Shown one piece after another: positions 845 to 1,103 of a stretch of 1,103 bases of DNA; position 1 is the first letter of the stretch; every line of letters begins with the position of its first letter. The position numbers and the translations under genes are program-made. The notes under the pieces are model-generated. The model did no database searches and was not told where the DNA came from. It saw only the letters and a list, made by a program, of their open reading frames with translations. The stretch is from Escherichia coli (GTDB lineage: Bacteria > Pseudomonadota > Gammaproteobacteria > Enterobacterales > Enterobacteriaceae): assembly GCF_003334255.1 (NCBI RefSeq), contig NZ_QOWU01000174.1; one strand, written 5' to 3'.

Positions 845-870
845 ATAAGCCCGGTAAAATACGGGCTTAT
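845..870 (+). promoter_or_regulatory. Perfect stem-loop (9-bp stem, 8-nt loop) overlapping the tnpC start codon
   Basis: ATAAGCCCG at 845..853 pairs with CGGGCTTAT at 862..870; the loop is GTAAAATA at 854..861. The 3' arm includes the A and T of the tnpC ATG (869..871) and the only SD-like GGG (863..865). No U-tract follows, so it is not a typical intrinsic terminator. Confidence 0.55.
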
Positions 871-1103
871 GAACGACATCTCTTCTGACGACATCCTCCT
901 GCTGAAACAGCGCCTGGCCGAACAGGAAGCGCTGATCCACGCCCTGCAGGAAAAGCTGAGCAACCGGGAGCGCGAAATAGACCATCTGCAGGCGCAGCTG
1001 GATAAACTCCGCCGGATGAACTTCGGCAGTCGTTCCGAAAAAGTCTCCCGCCGTATCGCACAAATGGAAGCCGATCTGAACCGGCTTCAGAAAGAGAGCG
1101 ATA
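869..1103 (+). CDS. tnpC: IS66-family transposase OrfC/TnpC, N-terminal fragment (5' partial; runs off the window)
   Basis: Open frame from ATG 869 to the window end with no stop: MNDISSDDILLLKQRLAEQEALIHALQEKLSNREREIDHLQAQLDKLRRMNFGSRSEKVSRRIAQMEADLNRLQKESD. Hydrophobic residues recur at 3-4 spacing (I9, L12, L16, I23, L26, L30, I37, L40, L44, L47), suggesting a coiled coil. It is absent from the ORF track only because it has no stop within the window. Confidence 0.85.
   Translation, partial: MNDISSDDILLLKQRLAEQEALIHALQEKLSNREREIDHLQAQLDKLRRMNFGSRSEKVSRRIAQMEADLNRLQKESD

Follow-up and report, generated by a model that had tools for sequence, protein, structure and literature searches.

The locus

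The window considered here, i.e. the whole stretch of 1103 bases that was analysed, corresponds to the left end of an ISEc8-like element of the IS66 family and comprises the left inverted repeat (IRL), tnpA, tnpB and the beginning of tnpC. It is 99.8% identical to thousands of Escherichia coli loci annotated as tnpA, tnpB and tnpC of the IS66 family, some of these near-identical copies carrying the name ISEc8, and its sequence matches 3,826 of 5,426 complete genomes, the median among genomes with any match being three places; few insertion sequences are as common in E. coli as those of the IS66 family. The left terminal inverted repeat (GTAAGCGTACAGCCTGAACCGT) occupies positions 3-24 of the plus strand, leaving a flank of only 2 bp within the window, and matches the right end of a 99.8% identical copy (locus L001), which reads GTAAGCGTGCAGCAAGAACCGT on the other strand. 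The element in that copy measures 2442 bp, with terminal inverted repeats at both ends, so that inverted repeats, which in the IS66 family are expected to begin with GTAAGCG, are present here. The family is also expected to leave an 8-bp target duplication; the 8-bp flanks of the L001 copy are unlike each other (AACAAATG at 2495-2502, GGTAAAAG at 4945-4952), so that a duplication is not seen there, possibly reflecting recombination between copies; a truncated helicase pseudogene adjoins its right end.

The window holds three consecutive ORFs in the order tnpA-tnpB-tnpC, as found in IS66 elements (74/95-475, 472-819 and 869 onwards), all on the plus strand. The first, tnpA, encodes an IS66 accessory protein at 95-475; its longest ORF begins at GTG 74 and would give 133 amino acids, and the RefSeq start is the ATG at 95, giving 126 amino acids. 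The second accessory gene, tnpB (472-819, 115 amino acids), likewise bears its name in the RefSeq annotation; TnpB of IS66 elements is of the PF05717 type, and this Pfam family is matched by the TnpB of three distant relatives. The tnpA stop and the tnpB start overlap in an ATGA at 472-475, an arrangement that suggests translational coupling between the two. The third gene, tnpC, is represented by its 5' part (869-1103), the first 78 codons of a 512-amino-acid transposase, as defined by the ORF, the RefSeq copy and the NCBIfam model NF033517; its ATG at 869-871 agrees with the RefSeq annotation of the 99.8% identical copy, and its translation starts MNDISSDDILLLKQRLAEQEALIHALQEKLSNREREIDHLQAQLDKLRRMNFGSRSEK. 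On the minus strand, an antisense ORF of 92 amino acids (785-1063) overlaps the region of tnpC with which most of this analysis is concerned, 893-1009, yet it gathered no support and is probably spurious. Within 893-1009 itself, neither a tandem repeat nor a promoter-like or terminator-like site was found, and the sole match of an Rfam scan of the window at E ≤ 1 was a sub-threshold hit to isrJ lying outside this interval.

Directly upstream of tnpC, at 845-870, the sequence can form an RNA hairpin (AUAAGCCCG / GUAAAAUA / CGGGCUUAU), the 3' arm of which takes in two bases, A and U, of the start codon of tnpC (869-871). Together with its surroundings (815-900, 86 nt) it folds with an energy of -23.3 kcal/mol and z = -3.5; there is no T-run after the hairpin and no obvious Shine-Dalgarno sequence before the tnpC ATG. 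A hairpin of other sequence occurs in a relative with 65% identity (locus L078, 2820-2848), where the whole AUG is paired. Together, these hairpins suggest translational control or coupling of TnpC synthesis.

Domain architecture of TnpC

The full-length transposase was read from the 99.8% identical copy (L001 3369-4904), its zinc-finger and catalytic domains lying outside the window. Four Pfam families match it: LZ_Tnp_IS66 at residues 39-110 (E = 2.7e-13), zf-IS66 at 119-161 (3.5e-13), DDE_Tnp_IS66 at 175-461 (3e-106) and the C-terminal element DDE_Tnp_IS66_C at 468-505 (2.4e-16). Membership of the IS66 family, judged by the presence of DDE_Tnp_IS66, zf-IS66 and the C-terminal element, is borne out by all three, and the NCBIfam IS66 transposase model NF033517 gave 463.5 bits against a cut-off of 180. 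The preliminary description of this DNA had placed the catalytic domain beyond the window, as is indeed the case given the limits of DDE_Tnp_IS66 (175-461).

An AlphaFold2 (AF2) model of the full-length protein, built on an 81-sequence alignment, reached a mean pLDDT of 91 and shows, in order, a helix over residues 7-52, a weaker helix over 55-80, a disordered linker over 81-107 and then the zinc-finger and catalytic body. A sequence search of the PDB with TnpC returned nothing at E ≤ 1; by structure, the body of the model comes closest to the ISCth4 transposase (6xg8/6xgx; Foldseek E = 1.3e-7, TM 0.39-0.53).

A six-heptad leucine zipper at the N-terminus of TnpC

The preliminary description had drawn attention to isoleucines and leucines recurring at a spacing of three to four residues near the start of TnpC, at positions 9, 12, 16, 23, 26, 30, 37, 40, 44 and 47, and had read them as a leucine-zipper-like coiled coil. 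All ten residues are where they were said to be, and residues 9-47, which make up six heptads, map exactly onto 893-1009 of the plus strand. When the register is set with I9, L16, I23, L30, I37 and L44 at a and L12, Q19, L26, R33, L40 and L47 at d, ten of the 12 core positions are occupied by I, L, V or M (ILVM), and all ten are Ile or Leu. When these 39 residues were shuffled 100,000 times, that count was reached in any register only four times (p = 4e-5), and no other 39-residue segment of the 512-residue protein scores as high. Two polar d positions, Q19 and R33, and three off-pattern leucines, L10, L11 and L22, had gone unmentioned. Among the pairs formed between g and the following e' (+5) in this TnpC, two are attractive (R15-E20 and K29-E34) and none is repulsive. 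Residue 23 (window 935-937), an a position, is Ile here and Asn in many close relatives (AEQEALN).

A COILS-like scan, whose matrix is approximate and which returned about 1.0 for the GCN4 zipper and 0.02 for T4 lysozyme as controls, assigned P > 0.9 to residues 7-51 and to a second stretch at 54-84. The remainder of TnpC scored low, the sole other segment above P 0.5 being 362-383 (P 0.68 at a scanning width of 21); in the wider family, P > 0.9 was reached by only 35 of 74 homologs. Among the Pfam and NCBIfam models, the zipper segment matches coiled-coil families only weakly (SlyX, PKcGMP_CC, CLZ, GIT_CC and SMC). In the AF2 monomer the helix is unbroken from residue 7 to residue 52, with pLDDT 86-92 over residues 11-40, and its extent, to which the alignment and the cap-to-cap spacing described below also point, places the full predicted N-terminal helix at 887-1024 of the plus strand, so that the heptad pattern reaches slightly past the interval originally flagged. 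What is usually asked of a leucine zipper, namely four or more heptads in a row with a hydrophobic core at a and d, freedom from proline and glycine, and a predicted helical conformation, is found in this segment. The zipper-like reading thus survives both the coiled-coil scan, with P > 0.9, and structure prediction, which yields a single long and confident helix at 7-52 in full-length TnpC. Taken together with the conservation of the heptads and the whole-heptad changes of length in the family (see below), we conclude that the segment first noticed is indeed a leucine zipper, six heptads long, with which the ISEc8-like transposase begins.

The second, less confident helix (residues 55-80) begins at 1031 on the plus strand and runs off the window at 1103; it rests on P > 0.9 for residues 54-84 in the COILS-like scan and on pLDDT 61-79 in the AF2 model. 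In the lineage of the window it is itself heptad-like (I63, M66, L70, L73), a property that seems specific to the enterobacterial lineage.

Conservation across the IS66 family

A search of 1.84 billion representative proteins yielded 150 diverse IS66 transposases. In 72 of them, sharing 33-52% identity with the TnpC of the window, the a and d columns 12, 16, 26, 30, 37, 40, 44 and 47 contain ILVM in 69-94% of sequences; outside the core, the columns at b, c, e, f and g between residues 9 and 47 do so in at most 26%, except for g-position 15 with 79%. The d columns 19 and 33 contain ILVM in only about 33% of the same homologs; polar residues at d19 and d33 may mean either that the zipper is weak or that another oligomer state is specified.

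According to the alignment, the family shares a common layout in which an N-terminal cap, LPxD, is followed by a heptad region of variable length and then by the motif RxxFGxxSEK, and in most relatives the helix runs from the LPxD region to a C-cap that corresponds to F52-G53 in the TnpC of the window. Does the length of this helix vary freely? In 48 of 57 representatives, the spacing between the proline of LPxD and the glycine of FGxxSEK is 33, 40, 47, 54, 61, 68, 82 or 89 residues, i.e. it falls into one and the same heptad phase (binomial p = 6e-32 in a test that requires no alignment, a value that overstates the independence of representatives that are related to one another). An alignment-based test of the spacing agrees with this result. 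Six of the nine out-of-phase representatives deviate by +4, as a stutter in a coiled coil would, and the heptad phase is absent from the control interval between FG and the zinc finger. With a cap-to-cap spacing of 47, the TnpC of the window is in phase with its family. Across the 57 representatives, the helix between the flanking motifs thus varies from 33 to 89 residues and comprises 4-12 heptads depending on the lineage. Despite the kinship of the sequences, the existence of eight in-phase length classes requires that whole heptads were gained or lost repeatedly. Throughout, the core columns stay hydrophobic and insertions and deletions come as whole heptads; such a pattern is to be expected only where selection maintains an unbroken hydrophobic seam.

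The composition of the core bears on the type of coiled coil that may be formed. In 48 representatives, with the register set by the flanking anchor motifs, a positions are occupied by Ile or Val in 43%, by Leu in 30% and by Asn in 10% of cases, and d positions by Leu in 63% and by Ile or Val in only 3%. By the Harbury/Alber rules, beta-branched residues or Asn at a combined with Leu at d are the signature of a parallel dimer, a buried Asn at a being a classic mark of the parallel, in-register arrangement. The family core, to judge from its residues, is therefore of the parallel-dimer type.

Proposed self-association of TnpC and alternative explanations

We propose that residues about 5-52 of TnpC form one continuous amphipathic helix, which would pair with its counterpart in another copy of TnpC to give a parallel, in-register leucine zipper. 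By joining two protomers, the zipper would double the RxxFGxxSEK motif, the zinc finger (119-161) and the DDE domain, and the doubled domains could then allow both ends of the insertion sequence to be bound and brought together. Self-association is in our view the most likely function of the zipper, and we consider it probable, though well short of certain; the partner would accordingly be another TnpC and the stoichiometry two. That pairing might be needed for end binding and synapsis is suggested by analogy with the zipper of IS911 OrfA/OrfAB (see below). Of the two roles that the preliminary description had offered for the zipper, multimerisation thus stands as the reading best favoured by the family pattern and by modelling, and contact with OrfA or OrfB through coiled-coil pairing is left without support.

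Modelling of the pair itself made use of a linked construct, TnpC(1-56)-(G4S)8-TnpC(1-56), for which AF2, with an 18-sequence alignment, predicted two helices of pLDDT 94-98 (pTM 0.60) and 45 disordered linker residues. Linked constructs favour packing as such, and the orientation of the helices could be deduced only by superposing PDB chains: the two-helix matches of known topology were exclusively parallel pairs, from Sec9 and SNAP-25, and the single-helix matches were dimeric zippers, namely those of GIT1, ATF4, JunD and geminin. A Foldseek search with the same model was uninformative. That AF2 models a parallel pair from two linked copies of the zipper is no more than suggestive. A predicted dimerisation helix with clear bounds (5-52) and clear test mutations would at the same time make it simple to design soluble fragments for expression and to tell self-association apart from catalysis.

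How do other readings of the same helix compare? It could serve as a docking site for TnpA and/or TnpB, which was the alternative contemplated at the outset and would make the zipper part of a hetero-oligomer. In its favour, the genes invariably lie side by side in close coupling, as illustrated by the ATGA at 472-475, the order tnpA-like/tnpB/tnpC is kept in three distant elements, and we know of no work that defines the roles of TnpA and TnpB. Against this, neither protein displays any coiled-coil propensity, the COILS-like score staying at P < 0.005 both here and in three distant IS66 elements, and the distant tnpA-like ORFs (74-150 amino acids) are poorly conserved with no Pfam hit on record. 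Moreover, between lineages the zipper shifts in length by whole heptads over a range of eight heptads (33 to 89 residues), which argues against docking because a homotypic in-register pair accommodates such shifts of itself, whereas any fixed partner would need to change along with the zipper. A coiled coil between TnpC and either accessory protein was for these sequence-based reasons rejected, and docking in general appears unlikely to us, even if a contact of a non-coiled-coil kind is possible. Single-ORF relatives of the ISBst12 type were sought by tblastn of plasmids and by scanning viral contigs with the family alignment, and the matches listed were close enterobacterial copies; tnpB is kept in all three distant relatives whose contigs were read.

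Alternatively, the helix might pack within its own chain, where it would fold back on residues 55-80 in an antiparallel hairpin or lie against the catalytic core, and not mediate oligomerisation at all. It is true that the second helix starts only two residues after the first in the AF2 model and that it also scores as a coiled coil in the lineage of the window, but it is not conserved: proline is the commonest residue at column 61 (22 of 72 homologs), and many relatives have QLxLF in its place. Nor does the length of the downstream segment follow that of the first helix (Spearman -0.36) or show any heptad phase, and the model itself has a pLDDT of ~61 at the junction and a disordered stretch at 81-107, all of which leaves intramolecular packing with a small probability in our estimate. 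A similarly small one is assigned to a homotypic coiled coil of higher order, i.e. a trimer or tetramer, to which the polar d19 and d33 and the mixture of Leu and Ile at the a positions of this particular TnpC might point, as might the fact that some DDE transposases act as tetramers. In the family as a whole, the a positions nonetheless carry beta-branched residues or Asn and the d positions are almost exclusively Leu, a combination that by the Harbury/Alber rules favours dimers, and the transposase of ISCth4, the closest solved catalytic relative, is presumably a dimer in its transpososomes. The least probable reading by far, and one that can be regarded as excluded as far as sequence analysis allows, is that the pattern arose by chance or from composition and is structurally meaningless. 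An abundance of L, E, Q and R, as found in this segment, inflates scores of the COILS type, yet composition-preserving shuffles gave p = 4e-5, 72 divergent homologs keep these columns hydrophobic, and lengths change by whole heptads.

Relation to known zippers

The existence of a leucine zipper in TnpC is already known, both from Pfam, where PF13007 (LZ_Tnp_IS66) bears its name, and from the LZ of Gomez et al. (2014), who drew a 'leuzine zipper domain (LZ)' in TnpC (Fig. 3E, PMC3971601) and reported that in some Bacilli the LZ forms a separate ORF (PMC3971601). Full-text literature searches found no study of the function of the TnpC zipper and no published biochemistry of an ISEc8-like transposase. 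The Pfam domain belongs to the N-terminal region of this very protein family, as does the zipper flagged here; however, its match covers residues 39-110 (window 983-1103 and beyond; model positions 1-70 of 71) and holds only the last heptad and a half (39-47) of the flagged zipper. The heptad part of variable length (5-38) lies upstream of the match, the rest of which consists of the basic and beta-motif region. Residues 5-38 are probably outside the Pfam model because the length of this part varies. The current view that TnpC has a leucine zipper, annotated before, is thus unchanged. What is added is that the Pfam LZ covers little of the zipper, that the zipper varies in length by whole heptads, that its core appears to be of the parallel-dimer type, and that heptads to match it are absent from TnpA and TnpB.

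The nearest functional model is provided by OrfA/OrfAB of IS911 (IS3 family), which likewise combine heptad repeats with a bacterial DDE transposase. The IS911 zipper, studied by Haren and colleagues in 1998 and 2000, reportedly mediates homo- and hetero-multimerisation and is said to be needed for end binding and synapsis. It follows a helix-turn-helix, comprises about four heptads and is shared with the regulator OrfA by frameshifting. In TnpC, by contrast, the zipper lies at the extreme N-terminus, before the basic motif and the zinc finger, and comprises 4-12 heptads depending on the lineage; the ORFs upstream of tnpC have no zipper, and there is no sequence relationship between the two systems. 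The bZIP proteins (GCN4, ATF4, Jun) are not homologous either and differ in polarity, in that their basic region is N-terminal to the zipper, whereas that of TnpC is C-terminal to it. As for the ISCth4 transposase of the IS256 family, its likeness was demonstrated for the body of TnpC only.

Motifs flanking the zipper

At its C-terminal end the zipper gives way to a basic motif, R48-R-M-N-F-G-S-R-S-E-K58 (1010-1042, plus strand), which the alignment identifies with the consensus RxxFGxxSEK. Its G53 and E57 are conserved in at least 90% of sequences, and the LZ_Tnp_IS66 match is at its best conserved here. At the opposite end, the N-terminal LPxD is absent from the TnpC of the window, which reads ISSDD instead (residues 1-8, window 869-892); relatives 83-90% identical to it have LPDD or LPND. 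Beta-clamp-binding motifs have been described either upstream or downstream of the LZ in TnpC (Gomez et al. 2014, PMC3971601). In most of the family, columns 65-69 read QLxLF, the Q, L, L and F being found in 58, 44, 54 and 30 of 72 homologs, respectively, and a beta-clamp-type QLxLF/L motif beside the zipper is not present in the TnpC of the window, which has QMEADL there (residues 65-70, window 1061-1078).

These flanking motifs allow a further thought, which as a whole we hold to be rather improbable, namely that the zipper is a rod of adjustable length and that, in the ISEc8 lineage, the coupling to the replisome has been altered. With 4 to 12 whole heptads between its two caps, the zipper could do more than dimerise, and the rod could keep its two ends, LPxD on one side and RxxFGxxSEK/QLxLF on the other, in a fixed angular phase because both would dock one partner, for instance the beta sliding clamp or an end of the insertion sequence. 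The ISEc8 lineage has neither LPxD nor QLxLF, and the coupling of transposition to the host replisome may therefore have changed in this lineage.
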